A stretch of DNA of 64,000 nt from Patescibacteria group bacterium. Lineage in GTDB: Bacteria; Patescibacteriota; Patescibacteriia; UBA9934; GWF2-40-263. The stretch lies in the NCBI GenBank assembly GCA_041661745.1, contig JBAZTR010000003.1, positions 11,965 to 75,964 of the forward strand. Reading direction: 5' to 3'. A program made the position numbers and the translations under genes. This document shows, in pieces, positions 10,093-48,263 of this stretch; within the stretch, counting starts at the first letter, position 1, and each line of letters starts with the position of its first letter. Below the pieces are notes generated by a model. It was given only the letters and a program-made list of their open reading frames with translations. It was not told the DNA's origin and made no database searches.

Positions 10093-10742
10093 TTACTGCT
10101 TAATTCTAACAAATTGACGAAGATTTTCAAGAGCTAAATTCGCCGTCTCCTTACCGCTGACATGAATGGCTCGGCCACCCAGGCCAGCGAAAAAATTACA
10201 CGTGTTCAAAGAATCATCAATTAAAAAAGAGTCATGAATCGGCACACCAAACTCGCGCAAAGCTGCCAAAAAAGACTCCCCGTCTTTTTCTGTTTTCAAA
10301 TATCCCAAGTCGGAAGAAACAACGATTTTATCAAAAACTTCGTCGAGTTTTAATGCCGGTACGGTAAAACGAGTGAAACAATCCATATTCCCGGTAACCA
10401 AAACAACATAAGCCGAGGAACGAAGTTTATAAATAGCTTCTCTCAAGGCGTTATCTAAGACCATAGTACAACCAAGGCGTTATCTAAGACCATAGTACAA
10501 CAGGTCGCGGTAAAATCTTGCCACAACAGGTCGTATGGCAAACCGGTCCATTCGGCAACCAAACTATTTATCTCCTCTGAAGAATATTGCCCGCGCATCC
10601 AGTCGTCATGCAAGGCTGGTCCATCACCAAAAATTTTTTCGTGGGCAACTTTCATTTCATCCTGGTCACGCAGACGACGCCAAAATTTATCACAACAAAG
10701 GGTACCGGACCAGTCGACAAAAATGACGAATTTCTTATCCAT
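10093..10742 (-). pseudogene. HAD-superfamily hydrolase gene disrupted by a 29-bp tandem duplication (split into ORFs 10455-10742 and 10093-10464)
   Basis: The N-terminal ORF has FVDWSGTL (HAD motif I-like) and ends ..CCTMVLDNALVVLWS*. The C-terminal ORF restarts MVLDNALREAIYKL... The peptide MVLDNAL is encoded twice by the duplicated 29-mer. Confidence 0.65.
10444..10501. repeat. Exact 29-bp direct tandem duplication CAAGGCGTTATCTAAGACCATAGTACAAC x2
   Basis: Copy 1 is 10444-10472 and copy 2 is 10473-10501. 29 is not a multiple of 3, so it frameshifts the HAD gene. Confidence 0.9.
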
Positions 10743-31471: not shown

Positions 31472-33928
31472 TTACTCACTTTGCACTTCCCCACCCTCAA
31501 CTGTAGTCGCGGTTTCTTCACCTTCTTCAACCGGTGTCGGGACTTGGGTAGTCAATTGGCCGGACTTTAATTTACTAAGTCTGGTTTGCACCGCCTGATT
31601 GCCCGGATTTAGTTCAGCCACCTTAGCAACCTGATTGATTGCCTCGTTCAATTTTCCGTCAATTTCATACATCGAAGCCAAATACCAGCGAGCATTTGAA
31701 TAGTTCGGAGACAACTCAAGTATTCGCTCTAATTCCTTTTGTGCTGAATCATAATCAGTCAGACGAATATAAAGCATGGACAATTGGAAACCGAGACCAA
31801 CATCCAACGGTTTATAATCGCGAAGCGCGGCCAAACGGGCGGCGGCATCTTTTAACTTGCCTTGGCGTTCCAAAACTGCCGCCAAATAATAGTGGGCCGG
31901 GGCGTAATCCGCCTTCAAAACAATCGATTGGTTAAGGTATTGTTCGGCCGAAACTAAGGAATTTTTTTCCGATTCAACGGCCGAGGCCGCCAATTCCTTA
32001 TTAGTGGAGCTCTTTAAATTACGGGCCCGATCGGATACGGCCAAATAAAGACGAGCTAAACCGGTTGAATAAGCCGGATTATTATCTTCCAATTCCATGG
32101 CTTTTAAGTAAGAAGCGGCGGCAACATCCTCAGCGCCGGTTACCACCGGCATAACATCACGATATACATTACCCCGTTGAACCCAGTTACTGACATTGTT
32201 TGGCGACAAATACGCGGCACGGTCAGCCGAGGTCATGGCCGCCTTAACCAACTGTTGGATAATCGAGGCTTCGTTTGCGTCAATTTTCGATTCATCGGCT
32301 GTGGCTGTGGTTATAGTGTCTTTAGTTCGCAAAAGAAAGGCTTGGCTTAAGTTTCTGTAATAAATATCAGAAAGGCTGTTTAAAGAGACAGCTTCGCCTA
32401 GTTTGGCGGTAATTTGTTCAATGGGCGCGCCGGCGTTATCCAGCTCAACGGCCTTAGCAAAAGCAACTTCCGAAGCATAGCGTTGCCCGGTCACAAACAA
32501 AGTTACGATAACTCCGACCGACACCAAAACAAAAGCAAAGGAAAAGACCAAACCGAGTTTTGGAGAACTGACAAAGCCGGTCTCTTTTATTTTAAGAGCA
32601 ACTTGGCTGGCCAACAATCCGGTCAAAGCCCAAAACAAAAAGGTTAAGGACATGTTAGAGGAATAAAGCAGGTTGGCCAAAATCAAGGTGGCCCAAGAAG
32701 CAAAAAGAACGTAGGTTATTTTCCATTCATCGTGTTCGCGCTCCTTAAGCAAGCGTCCCAAAGCCTTAAGTCCGATCACCAAAACTAACAGTAACCAAAA
32801 GCCTAAACCAACTACACCAAAAGTGGCGAGGGTGGTTAGACCTTGAGATTTGGCACGATCGAAATTGGTGTCCCAAAATATTGTCTGGTTAACCTCGTCC
32901 GGTTTGTACTTGGTATAGTCAAAAGAGAAAGTTCCGGGGCCTGAACCAAAAATTAAAGGCATTGGGCCGTCGGACAAAACTTGTTTGGTTATATCCCAAC
33001 TTGTGCCATAACTTGGACCAATTACCAAAGGAAGATTTAACTTGATTGGACTGGTTAAGAAAAGCAAAAAGATGCTGATCAGGATAATTATCAGAGGAAC
33101 GATAAAACGGTTGGATTTACCGAATTCGTTTTGTTGTAAAAAAACAAAAACCATCACCAAAAGCATACCGAAAATCGCTAGAACCCAAAGAACCCAAAAA
33201 TCAATCGCCACAAGAAGAATTGTAGTAGCCACTGATAAAAAGATAACTAAACCACGCGTCACCGCCCCTTTAATGCCAACTGGAAAAAAATCGTTTCGTT
33301 CTTTTTTACCAACCAACCACATTCCCATGCTAAAAACCATCATAATTGTTAGGAAGACGGTAAAGGAGGTGATTGTCCCAACAGTGTTGGCCCCATGTGC
33401 TGTTAAGAACGGGATAAAACCTAGGCCAAAAATATTCAGCAAGGTAATCAAGGCACTAAGCGAGGTGGCCGATAAAATAGCAAAGAAAATATTTCTTTGA
33501 ACCGTGGTTTCGCCAGCCTTGTTCATCAAAACGTAAAAAATAACCACGGAAACAGCTAGGGTTAAAAAGCTGGTGTATTCCTGCGAGGACTGCCCCACCC
33601 ATGATTGATATCCGGCTAAAGAAAAAATTGAGGAAACCAACCCGCCGAGCAAAAGCAGGGCCGGCAATAAGTTTAACCAACCAGCCCGAAAGGCCAGTTT
33701 TTTTTCCATGACCATTGAACCGAGCCAAGCCAACAGGGCGACAAAAGCCAGAATAACCATCAAGGTTTGTTTGCTGACCTCAAAGGCCTCGTTAGTAAAC
33801 GGAAGAAAGAAGATCGGCAAAAAAAAGAAAAGGGCGTAGAGTGACCAACGAATTACCGTCTCGTAGAGACCGGCGTTCGCCAAAGAAACTCTCTTTCTTT
33901 TTCCAACCGAGGTTGAAGCGATATCCAT
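31472..33928 (-). CDS. Polytopic membrane protein: O-antigen-ligase-like domain fused to C-terminal TPR repeats
   Basis: At least 12 TM segments in the N-terminal 480 aa; C-terminal TPR-like repeats. Confidence 0.65.
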   Translation of the reverse strand: MDIASTSVGKRKRVSLANAGLYETVIRWSLYALFFFLPIFFLPFTNEAFEVSKQTLMVILAFVALLAWLGSMVMEKKLAFRAGWLNLLPALLLLGGLVSSIFSLAGYQSWVGQSSQEYTSFLTLAVSVVIFYVLMNKAGETTVQRNIFFAILSATSLSALITLLNIFGLGFIPFLTAHGANTVGTITSFTVFLTIMMVFSMGMWLVGKKERNDFFPVGIKGAVTRGLVIFLSVATTILLVAIDFWVLWVLAIFGMLLVMVFVFLQQNEFGKSNRFIVPLIIILISIFLLFLTSPIKLNLPLVIGPSYGTSWDITKQVLSDGPMPLIFGSGPGTFSFDYTKYKPDEVNQTIFWDTNFDRAKSQGLTTLATFGVVGLGFWLLLVLVIGLKALGRLLKEREHDEWKITYVLFASWATLILANLLYSSNMSLTFLFWALTGLLASQVALKIKETGFVSSPKLGLVFSFAFVLVSVGVIVTLFVTGQRYASEVAFAKAVELDNAGAPIEQITAKLGEAVSLNSLSDIYYRNLSQAFLLRTKDTITTATADESKIDANEASIIQQLVKAAMTSADRAAYLSPNNVSNWVQRGNVYRDVMPVVTGAEDVAAASYLKAMELEDNNPAYSTGLARLYLAVSDRARNLKSSTNKELAASAVESEKNSLVSAEQYLNQSIVLKADYAPAHYYLAAVLERQGKLKDAAARLAALRDYKPLDVGLGFQLSMLYIRLTDYDSAQKELERILELSPNYSNARWYLASMYEIDGKLNEAINQVAKVAELNPGNQAVQTRLSKLKSGQLTTQVPTPVEEGEETATTVEGGEVQSE

Positions 33929-39704: not shown

Positions 39705-40550
39705 TTAAGATAGAAACTTCTTTACATCGGCCAAAGTAACCTTTTTCCGACCTGGCTGGTTTTTGTAACCCCAATTGTCACCTTCCCCGAAAACAAAGCC
39801 GCCAAATTTCTTTAAAAAAGCTTCGGCGATTGGTGTTTCCTGCACGCTTATAGCGTTGCGACCGTTCTCCACCAAAATAATTGGCGGTGATTTTTTAAGC
39901 CGCTGCCAAACCAATTCGGAAAGATAAGCCCGCAAGCCAAATTTGGAATTTATCGTTACAATAAAAAATCCGTTCCATTCTTTTCGTTTTTGCCAAGCCA
40001 ATCGCGCTTTCTTTTGATAAATCTTTTCTTTGGCCGGATCAACAAAAATTATGTTTAATTTTTTTCGAAAAGAAAAGACTTTTTTTATTTCCACGGTTGA
40101 ATAACCGGCTCGGCCTAAAGCTTCGATAAAGCCGCGATCTAAAATTCCAATACCGCGCACCAGACGCGGTGAAAAACCCAAAGCCGAAAGTTTTTTATCA
40201 GTCAGATTGAATAATTTTAAAAATTGTTCGAGGGAGGATGGTTTAATTTTTCTCTTGACATCATGGGCACGATCAAGCGTTCCGTATTGGTGATGATCGA
40301 TGATAACTAATTCCCTTCCGGCTTGCCGCAACTTCGTTTCTGTTTTAATCCCTGGCATTTCTACGATAAAAATCTTTTGATATTTCCCGGCTTGAATCTT
40401 TTTTAACAAACCCTTCTCTTTATCTAAAGTTGCCCCATGTTCTTGCCACGAAGCAATGATCGGCAAACCAATGGCCGCGGCAAGTTTGGCAATCAAAACC
40501 GCTTCGGCATCATTGATAGGAATAACGATCACGTTGTCTTTTAGATTCAT
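39705..40550 (-). CDS. Hypothetical protein (start at internal Met MNLKDNVIV)
   Basis: 281 aa; no family recognised with confidence. Confidence 0.4.
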   Translation of the reverse strand: MNLKDNVIVIPINDAEAVLIAKLAAAIGLPIIASWQEHGATLDKEKGLLKKIQAGKYQKIFIVEMPGIKTETKLRQAGRELVIIDHHQYGTLDRAHDVKRKIKPSSLEQFLKLFNLTDKKLSALGFSPRLVRGIGILDRGFIEALGRAGYSTVEIKKVFSFRKKLNIIFVDPAKEKIYQKKARLAWQKRKEWNGFFIVTINSKFGLRAYLSELVWQRLKKSPPIILVENGRNAISVQETPIAEAFLKKFGGFVFGEGDNWGYKNQPGRKKVTLADVKKFLS

Positions 40551-40570
40551 AATGGTTTGATTATAACAAA

Positions 40571-40642
40571 ACTCCCTTCCGCCAACCACTGGGAAGTGAC
40601 TGAAAGAAGGGGGCCGTCGAATTCGCTTTCGACGGGAAGATG
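40571..40642. repeat. Repeat element R_X (CTCCCTTCCGCCAACCACT...GAAGGGGG GCCGTCGAATTCGCTTTCGACGG GAAGATGG), 3' of island gene A
   Basis: The 5' half recurs at 41065-41112 and the hairpin half at 41879-41911. Confidence 0.7.
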
Positions 40643-40661
40643 GTTAGCGACCTTACGTTGA

Positions 40662-41039
40662 CTACAATTCCGCGGTCTCGATCGAGACGCGGATGAGCCG
40701 AACGTAACGGTCAAAGGCGAAGACCGCCCGGCCGGCCTCGTCGGTGCCGGCGACGATCAACCGCCCGGTCGCGTCGCGCTTGAACTCGGCGCGGAGCAGC
40801 GGGAAGGTGATTTCGCTGCGGGCCCCGAGGAGGCGCGCGAGGATCGGGAGAGGGGCGACCACTTCGGCCGCCACAACCTCGCCGACCTCGGCCGCCAACC
40901 GAGCCACCGTTCCGATGGGGTCGTCGCCAAAGGCGACGTCCATCGTGACGATTTCGAGGTCAATGCCGAACTTGGCACGGAGCCAGTCTTCGGCCGCGGG
41001 GAGGACGGGGTGACGGGTGATTCGGAGGAATTTGGACAT
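40662..41039 (-). CDS. Hypothetical protein A (125 aa) of the high-GC cassette array
   Basis: AGGAG 7 nt before the ATG. GC3-rich codons. 3' end encoded by a 14-bp palindrome GTCTCGATCGAGAC. Confidence 0.5.
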   Translation of the reverse strand: MSKFLRITRHPVLPAAEDWLRAKFGIDLEIVTMDVAFGDDPIGTVARLAAEVGEVVAAEVVAPLPILARLLGARSEITFPLLRAEFKRDATGRLIVAGTDEAGRAVFAFDRYVRLIRVSIETAEL

Positions 41040-41064
41040 GAGGAACTCCTAGGTTTGTTTTTCT

Positions 41065-41112
41065 CCCTTCCGCCAACCACTCGAGAGTGATTAGAAAAAG
41101 GGAGCTGTCGTG
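41065..41112. repeat. Repeat element R_Y (CTCCCTTCCGCCAACCACTCGAGAGTGATTAGAAAAAGGGAGCTGTCG)
   Basis: About 80% identical to the 5' half of R_X. Confidence 0.7.
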
Positions 41113-41234
41113 GAACAAGTACGATCCACAACAGGACGATTGTTTGGCCTTCCGCCCCCGCGGGCTAGGCTATACCTCCATTAAAGGTTAGGGGTTAAAG
41201 ATGGGCCGACCCGGCCGCCTTTCGGAGTTACCTC

Positions 41235-41723
41235 CTACTTGGCAGCCGATGCCGTTTTGGCCGGAGCCGAAGCCGCCCGCTTGGCCGCGGCCGAGCTGAT
41301 GCCAGACGCCTCGAGGGCGGCCGCCATCTTCTCGGCATTGGCCTCCGCCTCGATGCGCGCGGTGAGGCGGGCGGCGTGAGCCACCGCAACCTCGAGCCGC
41401 GCGACGCTGCGTCGGTGGGCCTCGAGAACCTCGACCAGCCGATTGGCCGCCAGTCGCTTGGCCGCAAGGGCCTCGCGACGAGCAGCTTCGGCGGCCCGCC
41501 CTTCCGCGATCGGCGCCTGGCGGGCAGCCGACCTCTGGAAGGCGGCGTCGGCCGCGACAAAGGCGGCGTCGGCATTCCGGCTTTCGACCTCGCGGTCGAA
41601 GAGGCGTGCCTCGACAGCCTTGAGGTCGGCCTGAGCCGGTCTCACCGCGAGCTTGATCTGGCGGTGGAGCTCGTCGGCCGGGGTAACGACGCGAGGGGCA
41701 CGGACAATACGAGCATGGAACAT
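41235..41723 (-). CDS. Ala/Arg-rich coiled-coil protein B (162 aa) of the high-GC cassette array
   Basis: AGGAGA 6 nt before ATG 41723. MFHARIVRAPRVV... The longer ORF-track versions (41846 start, or the Arg/Gly-rich alternate frame) are rejected. Confidence 0.5.
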   Translation of the reverse strand: MFHARIVRAPRVVTPADELHRQIKLAVRPAQADLKAVEARLFDREVESRNADAAFVAADAAFQRSAARQAPIAEGRAAEAARREALAAKRLAANRLVEVLEAHRRSVARLEVAVAHAARLTARIEAEANAEKMAAALEASGISSAAAKRAASAPAKTASAAK

Positions 41724-41878
41724 GACTGTCTCCTGACTGGGGGTAGAAGGAAAAGACCAGGAATAAATGATTGCTTGCCGTGGATCTCGGCCGGAACCAA
41801 GGAGGTGACCGAACGACCTGGCAAAGATCACATAGCAAGCAACCAAGAAATGATTTTATAAAAAATCAGCTCTTGGTT

Positions 41879-41911
41879 GCCGTCGAGTTCGTTCTCGACG
41901 GGAAGGATTGG
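41879..41911. repeat. Repeat element R_Z (GCCGTCGAGTTCGTTCTCGACGGGAAGGATTGG), hairpin half of R_X, immediately 3' of gene C
   Basis: CCGTCGAG..CTCGACGG inverted repeat. Confidence 0.7.
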
Positions 41912-41916
41912 CCGTA

Positions 41917-42078
41917 TCACACGGACCCGGTGCAGACGCGACGGATGATCTTTCCGTCACGCCGAACCACCACCACCTTCGGCCGCTTGGGCTTTGGGGT
42001 GGACCGGACGAGAGCCTCCGGATTGGTGGTGAACCAGGTGGCCAGATGCATTACGACGCCGTAGGACTTGGTAGTCAT
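41917..42078 (-). CDS. Small basic protein C (53 aa; below the ORF-track size cutoff)
   Basis: AGGAG 6 nt before ATG 42078. Hand translation: MTTKSYGVVMHLATWFTTNPEALVRSTPKPKRPKVVVVRRDGKIIRRVCTGSV*. Confidence 0.4.
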   Translation of the reverse strand: MTTKSYGVVMHLATWFTTNPEALVRSTPKPKRPKVVVVRRDGKIIRRVCTGSV

Positions 42079-42407
42079 CAGAAACTCCTGTTAAGGGGTG
42101 ACAACTTTTTTGGAAACATAAAGGGGACTTTGCAAGTCCCCAGAATATTTTTTGCTCCGGAAATTTGCCCGACACTTCCCCACCATTCGCCCAGGTCTGG
42201 GGTCCCAAACTAAGACAGGTTTGTGCCGAACAAATTTCCGGATCCGATCGAATTAACCTAATCCGATCAGTACGGCTAAAGTAGCCACCGCTGAAACTAT
42301 ATAAGTGATTGGGTACAACATAGAATTTCTTCTGCTGATAACAAGCATGGGGTTATCGGCAAGAGAGATTCGCGCAATCGGTTAGCCAAACCGACTGCGC
42401 GAGACGT

Positions 42408-42436
42408 GCCCCGAGGCTTCAGCCTCGGGTGTTTTG
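42408..42436 (+). terminator. Intrinsic terminator CCCGAGGC ttca GCCTCGGG TGTTTTGG
   Basis: 8-bp GC stem and tetraloop. The T-run follows on the plus strand only. Confidence 0.55.
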
Positions 42437-42475
42437 GACACACCTCCGGAAGTTTTTCGTTTATCCCCTGTTTTA

Positions 42476-42500
42476 GCCGTTGTCCAGACGGCTTTTTACC
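42476..42500 (+). terminator. Weaker terminator AGCCGT tgtccag ACGGCT TTTTACC
   Basis: 6-bp stem plus T-run. Confidence 0.35.
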
Positions 42501-42954
42501 AAGAAAACCTCGGCACGTGCCGAGTGCACGCATAGAGTGTTGGCCATACACTCCGCCTTGATTTTTCGGAAAACATGGGGTGTTAAGCGATCCGCAACAG
42601 GATCCGGAACATCTAATCTCTCTTAGAATGTTCCGATTTCTGTAGCGGATTTTACTCAATACATAATTTTTGCTGTATTGAGTCCAGATTGCCGAATTGG
42701 AACCTCGGACAAGGGTAAAACCCATGTTTTAACTGAATTCTGGGTGAAGTTGCCTATTCGAACAGTCCAGATCGCTTAGTGGCTCTTCGCTCACTTGTTC
42801 ACAAGCATTGAACGTTGCACTCTAACATAAACATAAAATACTGTCAAGGGTTAAAGTACCAAATCGACTATTTTGGCTAAAGTTAGAATAAAAAAATGTC
42901 CACGGTAAGTGGACAAATACTATTTTTTATCTAATATTAGCTGTATTTTACCCC

Positions 42955-42990
42955 TTGACAAATTTCCTGATTGTGATATTATAGCTTGTC
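42955..42990 (+). promoter_or_regulatory. Near-consensus sigma70 promoter: TTGACA, 16-17 nt, TATTAT/ATTATA
   Basis: cTTGACAaatttcctgattgtgaTATTATAgcttg. The predicted transcript starts near 42992 and is antisense to the 3' side of the TrmB-family gene. Confidence 0.5.
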
Positions 42991-43357
42991 TTTCAAAGGG
43001 GAAACCCAATGATTGACCGCTGCTGGACATCCGTTCAGCAGACCAGAGTCAGGTCGCCTCATCGCGACCTGGAGGACGACATGAACGGCTAACCCCCCCC
43101 TCTTCTAGTGCGGGGTGTTGGCAAAACTCCCATTCGTTGAATGGAGTCAAAAGGGGCAGAAACGTCCGTGAACAAAGAAAACACGGGCGACCGACAACAA
43201 GAACTTCGCCCCTTTAATCATGGATCATGGTCAACCTGACCCCGGTCCAAGACAAGACTCTTCAACGGAGGTGCGTTATGGGAGGCGCCTAACACCCCCA
43301 CAGCCCCCGCGGCACCAATGGTCTCGACGACCTGCGGTGCCCGGGGGTTCGTGATAT

Positions 43358-44104
43358 CTAGCGATCTTTTTCCGCGCCGTCCCAGGCCGCGTCAAACAAA
43401 ACCTTAGCGGTTTCGGCAAAAATTTTATTTTCCAAAACTACGGCAATTATTTTTCCAACAAAAGAAACAAAGGCAACACGGTTCCCATAGATCCAAATGT
43501 CACCATGAAATTCACCTAATTTATTTTTATCTAAAAAACGATAAGTAACCTTTTCACGTCGATGGGTCAATTCCCCGATGTGCAGAAGGTTAATTTTTAT
43601 TTTACCGGGATCAAGAACCATCCGAACATCTTTCAAAAGTTCAGAGTCTAAAAGATTATAGACATCCTCCATGTTAGATAATTCGCGTAAAGAATCTGGG
43701 GCAACTGAAGCCACGTCGGTAAAAATAGCGCTTAGAGCTTCTTGGCCCTCAAAAAAACGCACGGCTGGACGTTCGCCGCCACCCAACATTTTCACCTCTG
43801 GTAAAACCTTGTTTAAAGTTTCCAACTTTTCCTGCATTTCATGAACATGTTCTTTAAAATGCGATAAAGCGCGTTCCGGCTCTTCGGCAGCAAAAACCCG
43901 CTTCTTGCCACGTTCGTGAGAAGACATTAAACCGCGGTTTTGTAAGGCCTCAATATTGGTATAAGTGGCCGTGCGAGAGAGGTTGGCTTTTTTGGCAATT
44001 TCTTGTACCGGGGCTGGGCCAAGGTTCAAGCTGGCAAAATAAACCTTAGTTTCGGTTTCCGATAAACCGAGCGAGGTAAATAATCGAAAGATATCAGTTG
44101 ACAT
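43358..44104 (-). CDS. TrmB-family transcriptional regulator (N-terminal wHTH plus C-terminal domain)
   Basis: Start of protein ..KVYFASLNLGPAPVQEIAKKANLSRTATYTNIEALQNRGLM.. is a TrmB-type HTH. Confidence 0.7.
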   Translation of the reverse strand: MSTDIFRLFTSLGLSETETKVYFASLNLGPAPVQEIAKKANLSRTATYTNIEALQNRGLMSSHERGKKRVFAAEEPERALSHFKEHVHEMQEKLETLNKVLPEVKMLGGGERPAVRFFEGQEALSAIFTDVASVAPDSLRELSNMEDVYNLLDSELLKDVRMVLDPGKIKINLLHIGELTHRREKVTYRFLDKNKLGEFHGDIWIYGNRVAFVSFVGKIIAVVLENKIFAETAKVLFDAAWDGAEKDR

Positions 44105-44222: not shown

Positions 44223-47111
44223 TTAAACCTTAATAAAACCAACGGTTATATCGCACTCGTTAAGACGAAAGGCCTCACAAATTTCCGGGCGTTCGCCAGT
44301 TGTACGGAGATTGTTGGCTAAAGTGCCAACACGAATCGTCTCCCCATATTCTTCAATCATTTTCTGAGCCTCGACTTCAGCACTTTCGAAATAAATTTCA
44401 ATGCGATCTTCGATGGTCAATTTATTATTCTTACGCATTTCGTTAATGCGACGAACCAGGTCGCGAGCCATGCCTTCACGAAGCAATTCTGGCGTAAGAT
44501 TAACATCGAGCTCAACGTTGTACTCGCCTTTTTCAACAATCACGGCTTTTACATTAACTTCGTCTTTAATGATTTCAATAAGTTCGGCATCCAACTCCCC
44601 TTCTGGCAACCATACAGTGGCTGAAGCGAGTGGTTGGCGCACCGGTCGGCCGGTTTCAGCCCGGGCTTCCAAAATTTTGGAAACGACTGAACGAGCACGA
44701 GCCATGCGCTCCAAAAGTTTTTCATCAATTAATGCGACGTCAGCCGTCGGCCAATCATCAAGATGAACCGAAGCCTTGCCCCCTTGAAGTCGCAAGTAAA
44801 TAGCGTCAGACAAAAACGGAGTAAACGGGGCCATGAGTTTGGTAATGCCAAGCAAACATTCACGCAAGGTGAAAATAGCCGCGGCTTTGTCAGCTTCGTC
44901 CGATCCTTTAAAGCGATCGCGACTGCGGCGGACAAACCAGGTTGAAAGATCATTGATAAAATCAGCAATGGCCCGTACCGGTTCGGTCACTTTATAATTT
45001 TCCAACTGTTCGGTTGAATCTTTTATTAATTGATTCAGGCGAGATAGAACCCAACGATCCAAAACATTTTCCTTCTCTTTTTCTCCCTTTATTTCCCTTT
45101 CCTTCCCTTCATAGAGTTCGTAAAAAGTCATGATGTTCCAAAGGATCATGAAAACTTTCTTAATCATTTCATCGAGCGATTTCAAATCAAACCGTTTGGA
45201 ATCACCAGGCTGATTAATGGAATACATGTACCAGCGCACGGAATCAGCTCCGTATTTATTTATGGTCTCGACCGGATCAACAACGTTGCCGATGGACTTA
45301 GACATTTTCTTTCCTTGAGCATCAAGAACGTGTCCCAAACAAATGACATTTTTGTAAGGACGTTCTTTGCCAAGCAAGGTGGCCACAGCGAGCAGAGTGT
45401 AAAACCAACCGCGGGTTTGATCGATAGCCTCGGAAATATAATCAGCCGGATAGGCTGTCGCTTGCCCCTCGGAGCCCGGCGAAGTGGGGTCGATCTTTTC
45501 TTTATTCTCGAAAGGATAATGCCATTGAGCGAAAGGCATACAACCGGAATCAAACCATACGTCGCAGACTTCCGGGATGCGTTTCATTTGTTCGCCACAG
45601 CTGTCGCATTTAATCAAAACATCATCAACAAAAGGACGATGCGGATCAAACGGCTCGGCCATAGGTGTGACTGCCTTGGCTTTCAATTCTTCAAAACTTC
45701 CAATGCAAGTTTTTTGGCCGCAGGAACAGGTCCAAATCGGCAGTGGTGTACCCCAGTAACGCTCACGGGAAAAGGCCCAGTCCTTAACTTCACGCAGCCA
45801 TTCACCAAAACGACCTTCCTTAATATAATCAGGCTCCCAATGAATGTTTTCGTTTCCTTCAATCAGTTTATCGCGCAAAGAACTCATTTTGATATACCAA
45901 GAAAACTTGGCCAGATAGAGGAGCGGGGCTTTGCAACGCCAACAGAAAGGATAGGTATGACGATAAGTTTCTTCTTTATATAACAAACCGCGATCCAATA
46001 AATCTTTTTTAATATCTTCGTCGGCCTTTTTCATGAACTTACCAAAGCCCGGTGACTTTTCCGAACTAACCATGCCGGTTTGATCAACAGTAAAAATAAC
46101 TGGCAATTTTTCCGCGTCACCTAAACGTGAGTCATCCTCACCATAAGCCGGAGCAATATGAACAATTCCCGAACCATCGGTCGTGGAAACGAAATCAGCG
46201 GTGTAAACTTTGTAAGCTTTTTCTTTTTCTCGTCCGGGGGTGTCGTAATAGGTTTCGTAGAGCGGAACATATTTCATTCCAACCAATTCTGATCCGTTTT
46301 TCTCCCACACGGTTTCAAAAGATTCACTAACTTTTCCAAGTAGTCCGCTGGCTAAAATAAATTTTTCACCATTAGCCAACTTAATCTGTGAATATGAAAT
46401 ATTTTCACCAATAGCCAAAGCTACGTTACTCGGCAAGGTCCACGGAGTGGTGGTCCAAACTAAAAAGTAGCTATTCTCTTCCCCTTCAATTTTAAACTTA
46501 ATGTAAACCGACTGGTCATCGACCTCTTTGTATCCTTGAGCCAACTCGTGTGAAGACAAAGTTGTTACACAACGTGGACAATGTGGCACGACTTTATAAT
46601 CTTGATACAAAAGATCCTTGTCCCAAATCTGTTTAATGATCCACCACAACGACTCGACGTATTCGGAATGATAAGTGACGTACGGTTTGTCGAGGTCAAG
46701 CCAGAAAGCGATGCGCTTGGTAATTTTTTGCCAATCCTCAAGATACTTCCAAACACTTTCGCGACATTTTTTGTTGAATGGTTCAATGCCAAAATTTTCA
46801 ATGTCTTTCTTACCGGAAAAACCAAGTTGCTTTTCAACTTCAATTTCCACCGGCAAACCATGGGTGTCCCAGCCAGCCTTGCGATCGACTAAATACCCTT
46901 GCATGGTGCGGAAACGCAAAAGGCAATCTTTAAAAGCGCGCGACTCGACGTGGTGAATGCCGGGTTTACCATTGGCAGTAGGAGGCCCTTCAAAAAAAAC
47001 AAAACGGCCTTTGGGGGCAGCCTTGGCCAGGGTTTGTTCAAAAATCTTTTCTTTCTCCCAGTTTTCCAGGAGTTGTTCCTCGATTTGAGGAAAATTTGGT
47101 CTATCGGACAT
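44223..47111 (-). CDS. ileS: Isoleucine--tRNA ligase
   Basis: PPTANGKPGIHHV (HIGH region), KMSKSIGN, editing domain. 962 aa. Confidence 0.95.
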   Translation of the reverse strand: MSDRPNFPQIEEQLLENWEKEKIFEQTLAKAAPKGRFVFFEGPPTANGKPGIHHVESRAFKDCLLRFRTMQGYLVDRKAGWDTHGLPVEIEVEKQLGFSGKKDIENFGIEPFNKKCRESVWKYLEDWQKITKRIAFWLDLDKPYVTYHSEYVESLWWIIKQIWDKDLLYQDYKVVPHCPRCVTTLSSHELAQGYKEVDDQSVYIKFKIEGEENSYFLVWTTTPWTLPSNVALAIGENISYSQIKLANGEKFILASGLLGKVSESFETVWEKNGSELVGMKYVPLYETYYDTPGREKEKAYKVYTADFVSTTDGSGIVHIAPAYGEDDSRLGDAEKLPVIFTVDQTGMVSSEKSPGFGKFMKKADEDIKKDLLDRGLLYKEETYRHTYPFCWRCKAPLLYLAKFSWYIKMSSLRDKLIEGNENIHWEPDYIKEGRFGEWLREVKDWAFSRERYWGTPLPIWTCSCGQKTCIGSFEELKAKAVTPMAEPFDPHRPFVDDVLIKCDSCGEQMKRIPEVCDVWFDSGCMPFAQWHYPFENKEKIDPTSPGSEGQATAYPADYISEAIDQTRGWFYTLLAVATLLGKERPYKNVICLGHVLDAQGKKMSKSIGNVVDPVETINKYGADSVRWYMYSINQPGDSKRFDLKSLDEMIKKVFMILWNIMTFYELYEGKEREIKGEKEKENVLDRWVLSRLNQLIKDSTEQLENYKVTEPVRAIADFINDLSTWFVRRSRDRFKGSDEADKAAAIFTLRECLLGITKLMAPFTPFLSDAIYLRLQGGKASVHLDDWPTADVALIDEKLLERMARARSVVSKILEARAETGRPVRQPLASATVWLPEGELDAELIEIIKDEVNVKAVIVEKGEYNVELDVNLTPELLREGMARDLVRRINEMRKNNKLTIEDRIEIYFESAEVEAQKMIEEYGETIRVGTLANNLRTTGERPEICEAFRLNECDITVGFIKV

Positions 47112-47218
47112 ATTGTGTTAGGGAAAGGGAGTTAAAGGGAAAGAAAGGGAGGGAACGGGAGGGAAAGAAGATAAAATTTCCTTCTCTTTAATTCCCTTTT
47201 CATCTCTTTCCTTCTCTT
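47112..47218. repeat. Polypurine (GGGAAAGGGAGTTAAAGGGAAAGAAAGGGAGGGAACGGGAGGGAAAGAAG) / polypyrimidine (TTCCTTCTCTTTAATTCCCTTTTCATCTCTTTCCTTCTCTTC) mirror repeat in the ileS leader
   Basis: Seen directly in the sequence. Potential long imperfect hairpin or H-DNA. No T-box motifs seen. Confidence 0.6.
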
Positions 47219-47385
47219 CTAAAAACTGGGCAAATAATAACATTTATAGGCAAAAATGACAAATTTGTGAGATAAAAAACCGCGTGGCCGTGAAGCCATG
47301 CGGGAGGGGAGGGTGGATGCGAGAGTGTCCAAGGTCCAAGGAACCAAGAGCCATGCCAAGGGCAGAGGGCCAAAGAATCCCAGGG

Positions 47386-47958
47386 CTAGGAAACCTTGCG
47401 GAGAGCGAGGAAGCGGCAATGGGCATCCCAGTCGTCAGCGCCGTGGTCGATGTACAGGCGGCGCTCGCGGTCACCGCGATAGAGACAAGGGAAGAACAGG
47501 CGGCCGTGGCGGCGCCAGGCCTGGCCCAGAGCCACGATGGGGTAATTCCTCTGTTCCTCGGGGCACTTGGCTCCGTAGGCGAGGAGCTCAGCCGCCGAGG
47601 CGGGGATGACCCCCAACTGTTCGATCTCGTGGAGAGCTTCGTTGGTCGAGGCTCGACCGAGGTAGACGAGTACGGGCTCGTACTTGATCACGCCGGTGGA
47701 CTTGTTCGGGAAGTGCTCGGCCGTGACATCCATATCGCGACAGTTGTAGTGGCCGGCCGCGACCATCGCCTCGAAGGCGAGGTCATAGTTGACTTCGAGA
47801 ACGGAGTCCTCGAACCGCCCTTCGATGATGGCTTGGAGGGCGAGGCTGAGCTGCGCCGGGCTGAACGGGTAGCCGCCCCTCTGCCGGAGCTGGCGCTTGA
47901 TCTCAGTGAGCTGGCCGTCCAGATCGTAATACTGTTCGCCGGTGACGATGGGCGCCAT
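47386..47958 (-). CDS. Hypothetical protein D (190 aa) in high-GC island 4
   Basis: GGGAGA 6 nt before ATG 47958 (MAPIVTGEQYYDLDGQL...). GC3-rich. The antisense 260-aa ORF is rejected. Confidence 0.45.
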   Translation of the reverse strand: MAPIVTGEQYYDLDGQLTEIKRQLRQRGGYPFSPAQLSLALQAIIEGRFEDSVLEVNYDLAFEAMVAAGHYNCRDMDVTAEHFPNKSTGVIKYEPVLVYLGRASTNEALHEIEQLGVIPASAAELLAYGAKCPEEQRNYPIVALGQAWRRHGRLFFPCLYRGDRERRLYIDHGADDWDAHCRFLALRKVS

Positions 47959-48263
47959 GACGAATCTCCCTTTGTTGTGGCTTATGCCCGCCAGCGCCGT
48001 ATGCGCCGACAGACCTTCGCCGTCGTAGACCAGTTGTTGTCCCGATCTTCTTTCAAATTTCCTTAGAAAAACCTGAAAGAAAACCGCGAATTTAACGACT
48101 GACAATAACACAAAGTGACTGATTTGTCAATTCAAAACCCCTTCATCCTCCCTTGCCCTCCATAGCTCGCCTTGAGCGACGGAGGGTTCGTCCCCTTCAA
48201 CCTCTTCGTCCCCCAGCGCCCGCCATAGCCCAGCGAAGGCGGGTTTGATACAATACAAACTGT

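Follow-up and report, generated by a model that had tools for sequence, protein, structure and literature searches.

What is encoded in about 1.26 kb of DNA in which no credible long open reading frame (ORF) can be found, between a 53-amino-acid (aa) ORF and a gene for a TrmB-like regulator? The question was raised by a window of 64,000 nucleotides (nt), to which all numbering below refers, from a genome of Candidatus Uhrbacteria (candidate phyla radiation, CPR/Patescibacteria) with ~45% guanine plus cytosine (GC). The nearest database relatives of the flanking proteins belong to Uhrbacteria metagenome-assembled genomes, and identical contigs exist in two public assemblies; ERZ27249449 and SRR18595301 include the contig. 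A first-pass annotation had proposed that the interval holds one novel structured RNA. A conserved and highly structured locus is indeed present, but it is not a single RNA, since at least three units on both strands can be distinguished. Comparison with relatives indicates that the locus is a conserved cluster of small uncharacterised genes in Candidatus Uhrbacteria, between the trmB-like gene and a gene for a 281-aa protein. We assign a probability of roughly 0.6 to a compound locus of this kind in which the plus-strand RNA, carrying two minimal ORFs, works as a translated leader-like riboregulator. This RNA is the part of most interest, as a putative new variant of the leader/attenuator kind. 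The boundaries of the ORF-poor region are:

43358-44104, minus strand: trmB-like gene, coding for a winged-helix regulator with a Pfam TrmB match
41917-42078, minus strand: 53-aa ORF, the other boundary

The trmB-like gene is preceded by ileS, both on the minus strand. In agreement with the earlier view that the interval lacks a credible long ORF, just one ORF between the two boundaries reaches 60 aa (42297-42725, minus strand, 142 aa), and it was discarded as a gene: it has no Pfam match and no counterpart in relatives, because long indels break the alignment there.

Relatives were retrieved with the TrmB-like protein as anchor (13 loci from species genomes and 80 from metagenomes) and compared by blastn, a four-way alignment and nhmmer profiles of five blocks of the region (B1-B5). 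The ORF-free DNA is as conserved as the flanking genes, with relatives at 70-76% nucleotide identity; in the blastn comparison with locus L003, identity was 75.9% over 42598-42999, 74.5% over trmB and 73.2% over ileS. Blocks B1, B2, B3 and B5 are common to the closer relatives (L003, L004, L005, L016, L017 and others), and the most widely kept piece, B4 (42760-43000), adjoins trmB in ~35 loci according to nhmmer, even in lineages whose TrmB is only 50-60% identical. Six promoter-like sites were found in the region (2.3 +/- 1.4 expected) and eight terminator-like sites (3.4 +/- 2.0 expected). Three segments gave folding z-scores of -7.55 (42990-43352, plus strand), -7.51 (42365-42812, minus strand) and -5.50 (42105-42340, minus strand), with zero shuffles folding equally well.

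The cluster is organized around two divergent promoters and the hairpin between them:

42955-42982, plus strand: promoter P(+), TTGACA-N16-(TG)A TATTAT, 11 of 12 consensus positions with TG extension
42847-42842 and 42824-42819, minus strand: promoter P(-), TTGACA, 17 nt, (TG)T TAGAGT, 10 of 12 positions with TG extension
42897-42915, minus strand: central hairpin TGTCCAC-N5-GTGGACA followed by T7

P(+) had already been recognized in the first-pass annotation, and its recurrence supports it: a TTGACA-N15-19-TAnnnT sequence at the same position, aimed at the 3' end of trmB, is present in ~20 loci. The P(-) form, TTGACA-N17-TGnTAGnnT, was found in 21 of the 23 lineages examined. Both promoters recur in ~20 lineages with the shared form TTGACA-N17-TGnTAnnnT, their -35 regions are inverted copies (inverted repeat I5), and B4 also matches its own reverse complement. 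The arrangement of divergent, near-consensus, extended -10 promoters around a terminator hairpin, beside a trmB-like gene, is found in at least ~20 distinct lineages. Transcription is expected to start at ~42988-42990 from P(+) and at ~42813 from P(-). The central hairpin, kept in four relatives in the alignment, resembles a terminator on either strand; the minus strand has the better U-run, and there the hairpin would serve transcription coming from trmB. Its TGTCCAC palindrome resembles a DnaA box, and a replication origin (oriC) was considered and discarded: the window has no GC-skew inflection and the palindrome sequence is not conserved, relatives keeping only a hairpin and T-run at this position.

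The features of the transcript driven by P(+) are the following:

42988-43350, plus strand: mini-ORF RNA unit, ~360 nt from promoter to terminator, convergent with trmB
43071-43076 and 43081-43092, plus strand: mini-ORF 1, Shine-Dalgarno sequence (SD) GGAGGA, then ATG AAC GGC TAA (M-N-G-stop)
43267-43273 and 43278-43292, plus strand: mini-ORF 2, SD GGAGGTG, then ATG GGA GGC GCC TAA (M-G-G-A-stop)
43304-43347, plus strand: GC-rich terminal hairpin obtained by folding, CCCCCGCGGCACC ... GGTGCCCGGGGG

The plus-strand transcript predicted earlier proved to be a conserved promoter-to-terminator unit. It is kept in close relatives (nhmmer block B5), and P(+) lies ~355-390 nt away from the trmB stop codon in about a dozen distinct lineages, with separations of up to ~800 nt in others. 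Its sequence diverges fast among relatives, and RNAalifold revealed no convincing shared global fold in six close relatives (461 columns, -24 kcal/mol, covariation term of +1.87), the six-way alignment keeping only local hairpins and the terminal hairpin. This absence fits an mRNA- or leader-like RNA, not a globular one such as RNase P.

Besides the promoter and the local hairpins, what is conserved is a pair of very strong SDs, each followed by an ORF of 3-5 codons, a feature absent from the first-pass annotation. In relatives the SD is typically GGAGGU(G), with the start codon 4-6 nt later, and the encoded peptides are MNG, MAG, MHG, MNA, MGGA, MGG, MGGV, MFGG and similar; nearly every lineage has an equivalent of mini-ORF 1 (SD plus 3-5 codons). 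Frame and length are maintained although each of the three stop codons and every Gly codon occurs, a pattern that points to selection acting on translation and not on a fixed RNA sequence. Among 19 non-redundant transcripts, 32 elements made of SD and mini-ORF were observed against 1.4 expected from first-order Markov sequences; 14 transcripts have two mini-ORFs, four have one and that of L066 has none. The possibility that the mini-ORFs are the C-termini of longer ORFs was rejected, since the frame upstream is closed after 1-5 codons in 10 of 38 cases, seven of these being second ORFs. Also set aside were the ORF starting at ATG 43008 and a further SD-led ORF in the middle of the unit, neither of which is conserved in length (8-56 aa) or sequence; the former, described earlier as a 28-codon mini-ORF at the head of the transcript, exists with 27 codons. 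Elsewhere in the window, a site of the same kind (MNGK, at 32730) lies inside a coding gene of 818 aa, and the remaining ones were taken as chance occurrences.

The position of the mini-ORFs relative to secondary structure is likewise maintained. In the window, the terminal hairpin starts 11 nt past the stop of mini-ORF 2 and leaves 10 nt between its end and the trmB stop codon (43358-43360), and mini-ORF 1 is followed by a C-rich tract and a small hairpin. Past the second stop, a stable hairpin begins within 0-10 nt (median 6) in 15 of 15 lineages, and the folding energy of the 75 nt there is -22 to -47 kcal/mol; the first stop is followed, in 12 of the 15, by a weaker hairpin at a distance of 0-7 nt. 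In most relatives a clear U-run follows the terminal hairpin and abuts the convergent trmB stop codon.

A ribosome with a stop codon in its A site covers ~9-10 nt beyond it and, given the adjacent hairpins, must therefore open the hairpin base. In the mechanism we propose, ribosomes initiating or terminating on the mini-ORFs would reach the base of these hairpins, so that translation status would set whether the hairpin or terminator forms. This in turn would determine the 3' end and stability of the RNA, or read-through antisense to trmB. Two outputs are conceivable: translation-dependent read-through antisense to trmB, which we favour only modestly, or a stable antisense RNA, protected by ribosomes, that targets the trmB 3' untranslated region (UTR). 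The hairpin past the trmB stop has a U-run on the plus-strand side only, and on the minus strand no terminator follows until the central hairpin. With no U-run terminator of its own before that point, trmB probably has a 3' UTR complementary to the whole plus-strand RNA.

Our best guess, by analogy, is that the plus-strand RNA has a leader/attenuator-like design resembling that of vmlR. In the Bacillus subtilis vmlR leader, a three-codon upstream ORF (uORF; MIN) with an SD controls a terminator, and it is the initiation of translation that matters, not the peptide (PMC9226507). The likeness to vmlR and to lmo0919 of Listeria lies in the strong SD, the 3-codon ORF and the stable hairpin/terminator within reach of the ribosome. 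The SD-led ORF of few codons and the stable hairpin within the ribosome footprint are both found in our unit; a gated downstream gene on the sense strand is not. The unit further differs in having two tandem modules, in the lack of a demonstrated antiterminator pairing, and in ORFs whose stop is nearly always immediately preceded by a Gly codon or has one nearby. The Escherichia coli ampC attenuator, which Jaurin and colleagues are said to have described in 1981, reportedly consists of an SD-AUG-UAA start-stop at a terminator hairpin and is said to have been proposed to couple termination to ribosome availability, by a mechanism never firmly established. The resemblance, a ribosome-binding site and a near-empty ORF at a terminator hairpin, is one of analogy only, and the ampC attenuator regulates a downstream gene with a single module. 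The bar minigenes of phage lambda (AUG AUA UAA), known for peptidyl-tRNA drop-off toxicity in Pth-deficient hosts, are similar in placing SD-led ORFs of 2-3 codons on a non-coding transcript; nothing here points to toxicity, and the constant spacing between stop and hairpin has no counterpart in bar.

Several observations weigh against a leader-like riboregulator. Past the plus-strand terminator there is no gene on the sense strand, so that the output of a classical attenuator is missing; the next gene past the hairpin is, in every lineage, the convergent trmB, with its stop codon 10 nt on. A conserved alternative pairing between a G-tract after ORF 1 and a C-tract after ORF 2, seen in the window, L004, L016 and L041, was no better than in shuffled sequences. 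The terminal hairpin of the window itself has a weak U-run and was not listed by the terminator scan. The compact relatives L032, L055, L045 and L051 are entirely devoid of the plus-strand unit, which is therefore dispensable, and the transcript starts and ends are predicted from consensus and conservation. A trp-like relay between a C-tract after ORF 1, the G-tract and the C-tract after ORF 2 was also tried and rejected, its complementarity being at the level of shuffled controls.

The alternative that survives best, which we consider possible if doubtful, is that the plus-strand RNA serves above all as a small RNA (sRNA), either cis-antisense or trans-acting, that pairs with the trmB 3' UTR or blocks convergent transcription in an excludon-like manner. 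The mini-ORFs would then only load ribosomes to stabilize the RNA, as do the STAB-SD elements of Gram-positive mRNAs, and would not sense translation. In ~20 lineages the layout is convergent and the RNA ends ~10 nt from the trmB stop, which speaks for this, as do the termination signals past trmB described above and the fact that no significant switch structure was found. However, the extent of the trmB 3' UTR is itself inferred, and stabilization alone leaves unexplained the conserved ORF length of 3-5 codons, the Gly at position 3 and the stop-hairpin spacing of 0-10 nt.

Returning to the leader-like riboregulator, a more ambitious form of it would make the plus-strand unit an undescribed class of orphan ribosome-sensing RNA across Candidatus Uhrbacteria, coupling trmB expression to the translational state of the cell, which we regard as unlikely. 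Two minimal ORFs (M-N/G-G-stop) set against strong hairpins would in that case read the capacity for translation initiation or termination, the Gly right before the stop may slow release, and the only target downstream of the gated terminator would be antisense transcription into trmB.

P(-) directs the second unit of the cluster, with these features:

42365-42813, minus strand: structured sRNA (folding z-score of -7.51), its 3' end inferred at ~42365
42813-42797, minus strand: 5'-terminal hairpin GUUCAAUGCUUGUGAAC, at the transcript start from P(-)
42652-42588, minus strand: long hairpin with a GAGAGA loop and a covarying stem
42402-42370, minus strand: further hairpin of the same RNA

This region is 70-76% identical to L003, L004 and L005, and the GUUCR...YGAAC hairpin at the 5' end of the RNA recurs in nearly all lineages. 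In the stem of the GA-loop hairpin, 95% of the cells are paired across six lineages and 8 of 15 pairs show changes on both sides, a result equalled by none of 500 shuffles; controls in which the helix was slid were 24-48% paired. At two positions of this stem, four or five of the six sequences have U-G pairs; read from the opposite strand these would turn into C-A mismatches, which identifies the minus strand as that of the RNA. This bears on the two plus-strand terminators (42408-42436 and 42476-42500) of the first-pass annotation, which lie inside this RNA: the conserved P(-), together with the U-G pairs in the covarying helix, makes 42340-42812 best read as a minus-strand RNA. The hairpins at 42410-42436 and 42476-42500 have conserved, covarying stems in the alignment, and their T-runs on the plus strand are not fully explained by a minus-strand reading. 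The hairpins listed earlier for the whole region are all present; the scan recovered those at 42123-42141, 42410-42429, 42509-42524 and 42897-42915, and that at 42479-42500, with its T-run, is visible in the sequence and was not listed by the scan.

The motifs UCUGG and AUGCUUG are repeated in the minus-strand RNA and recur, together with GA-rich loops, in distant lineages. This RNA appears to be an sRNA in its own right that exposes its repeated motifs, and may be a sponge for proteins or RNAs. It resembles CsrB/RsmZ in its strong promoter, its bounding terminator, its variable length and the short motifs at hairpin loops (GAGAGA/GGAGAGA, UCUGG and AUGCUUG, noted by eye in or next to loops); it differs in that the motif does not match the GGA consensus of CsrA in a defined context, and membership is not claimed. 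In the compact relatives L055, L045 and L051, a hairpin and T-run at the position of the central hairpin come right after the trmB stop, followed by P(-), a homologous minus-strand RNA of 100-170 nt that has a terminator of its own, and lastly the 281-aa gene homologue. From this layout we infer the ancestral order ileS, trmB, terminator, P(-) sRNA and 281-aa gene. Within the P(-) transcript, L022, L023, L037, L041, L043 and L061 share a conserved block of ~150 nt, GGGG..CCCCAGAAAU...UUUCUGGGGAGAAGGCC...GGGCAA.UGAU.GGGCGCCC.UAAGCCC, located in L041 ~250-420 nt past P(-); it has no Rfam match and is absent from the window.

A third unit follows on the same strand:

42321-42253, minus strand: 22-codon hydrophobic ORF in a conserved frame, MLYPITYIVSAVATLAVLIGLG (stop included)
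42112-42242, minus strand: 3' region of the small-ORF transcript (folding z-score of -5.50, block B1)
42141-42123, minus strand: terminator GGGGACTTGCAAAGTCCCC with U-run, a terminator-like site in the scan

The length, start and stop of this ORF are the same in the window, L004, L005, L016 and L017, and 8-11 synonymous against 4-5 non-synonymous codon differences were counted in the four closer lineages; in L003 the ORF is deleted. These patterns indicate that it is a real gene under purifying selection, and its product is predicted to be a small membrane protein. The region is therefore not wholly non-coding, as had been thought. A long conserved hairpin lies past the ORF, with arms at 42242-42223 and 42175-42156 (inverted repeat I4), and block B1 also matches its own reverse complement.

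The 22-codon ORF and the terminator-like hairpins on the plus strand (42410-42436 and 42479-42507) could also be read as a type I toxin-antitoxin pair, i.e. the mRNA of a small membrane toxin with an overlapping antisense RNA. The peptide is conserved and fully hydrophobic, as in the ~20-aa products of the Ibs/Sib systems that are likewise encoded in a structured RNA; here the long hairpin is just downstream of the ORF, and the plus-strand hairpins with T-runs and covarying stems are just upstream. However, an antisense sRNA with its own promoter, as in Ibs/Sib, was not found: there is no plus-strand promoter-like site in 42100-42400 and no conserved -10/-35 pair in the alignment. In addition, the peptide has no charged tail, and the ORF was lost in L003 with the surrounding elements intact, all of which makes the pair improbable.

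Far less probable, and largely refuted, is that the whole region is one large novel structured RNA, be it RNase P-like, another ribozyme or the RNA of a ribonucleoprotein. Strong folding z-scores, the lack of a long ORF and conservation in relatives would agree with it, and the ~360 nt and strong promoter of the plus-strand unit recall bacterial RNase P RNA, a resemblance that had been pointed out earlier. It did not hold: no covariance model matched at E<=10, P4 and other conserved regions are lacking, and the six relatives have just local hairpins in common, with no shared global fold. Over the whole window, Rfam at gathering score returned five transfer RNAs (tRNAs), all outside the region, and between 41700 and 43700 nothing was accepted at E<=10 (best E = 1.3, all noise); the locus matches no Rfam family, as had been supposed. 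Neither Rfam nor ARAGORN gave a match in the region to transfer-messenger RNA (tmRNA), ARAGORN gave none to tRNA, and Rfam none to signal recognition particle RNA or 6S RNA; on the loci of 16 relatives Rfam returned tRNAs only. A search for tandem repeats gave no array like those of clustered regularly interspaced short palindromic repeats. Moreover, the two halves of the region have divergent promoters and opposite strand signatures, and the length of the minus-strand RNA varies from ~100 to >400 nt between lineages.

Non-functional debris, i.e. a decaying pseudogene or a prophage or mobile remnant beside horizontally acquired high-GC genes, would suit a variable insertion hotspot next to foreign-looking high-GC ORFs, but on the sequence comparisons it is refuted, with a probability close to nil, by a nucleotide identity equal to that of the flanking essential genes and a conserved B4, by promoters, SDs with mini-ORFs, a covarying helix and a small ORF kept where TrmB is 50-60% identical, and by the lack of any blastn match of the region in phage and plasmid collections.

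To our knowledge, almost nothing is known about RNA-based regulation in the small, tightly packed genomes of CPR/Patescibacteria. The locus yields two uncharacterised small-RNA genes and one micro-protein gene, conserved across the class, with clear promoters and terminators, a helix supported by covariation, and a statistically striking signature of translation on an RNA with no real protein product. Should the mini-ORF RNA indeed sense ribosomes and feed a convergent regulator, leader-peptide attenuation would be extended to the control of an antisense neighbour, and a 360-nt template would offer a tractable system for the coupling of transcription and translation in vitro. For annotation, the lesson is that this region should be represented by several small features, including a coding sequence of 22 codons, and not by one non-coding RNA.

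The 53-aa ORF that bounds the region encodes a basic product (MTTKSYGVVMHLATWFTTNPE...KVVVVRRDGKIIRR) with AGGAG upstream, is kept in L003, L004 and L005, and has no Pfam family; it is probably a real small protein gene. On its other side, variable cargo separates it from the last conserved gene of the locus:

39705-40550, minus strand: conserved 281-aa gene

The first-pass annotation had suggested a functional link between the structured region and the adjacent high-GC block. Across relatives, the small-gene elements and the 53-aa ORF persist while the cargo before the 281-aa gene changes; a specific link is therefore not indicated, and an insertion hotspot is the better description of the setting of the locus. 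Depending on the lineage, ~100 nt to 3.2 kb separate the promoter block from the 281-aa gene. The cargo gap spans 40551-42078 in the window, 7519-8184 in L003, 7281-8744 in L016 and 6870-8423 in L023. In the window it holds ORFs of 125 aa and ~162 aa with 62% GC, of which L017 and L005 share one each; in L003 the cargo is a DUF6847 protein, and in L016 and L023 it consists of Ro60/TROVE orthologs. The partners of Ro60 are Y RNAs; the window has no Ro60 gene, and no Rfam match to a bacterial Y RNA was obtained in L023 4700-6900 at E<=5.

The leader/terminator that precedes the 281-aa gene is repeated beside the high-GC ORFs (40572-40639, 41063-41110 and 41835-41907), with 81% identity over 48 nt and 89% over 27 nt. 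At 41835-41907 lies the best-conserved DNA of the whole cargo gap, with 89% identity to L005 13347-13421. These repeats suggest cassette-like insertion that duplicates or re-uses a boundary element; no integrase is present among the listed neighbours. An IIDHH motif is present in the 281-aa protein, for which the searches gave just a faint DHH match (E = 0.22) and no sequence relative in PDB. In every lineage examined, its gene (39705-40589 with the upstream sequence) has TATAAT or TATACT 6-9 nt before the ATG and no SD, an arrangement suggestive of a leaderless mRNA that begins immediately past the upstream terminator.

On the other flank, upstream of ileS (47120-47220), a purine-rich tract of ~50 nt faces a pyrimidine-rich tract of ~45 nt, with the potential to form a long leader hairpin; 47177-47219 is an 81% direct repeat of 45068-45110, inside ileS, where it encodes a Lys/Glu-rich insert. 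A second high-GC island (57%, 47001-48000) contains a minus-strand ORF of 241 aa without Pfam match (47284-48111), located between ileS and rpiB, which looks like another acquired gene. Finally, a 29-nt unit, CAAGGCGTTATCTAAGACCATAGTACAAC, is perfectly duplicated in tandem at 10444-10501.

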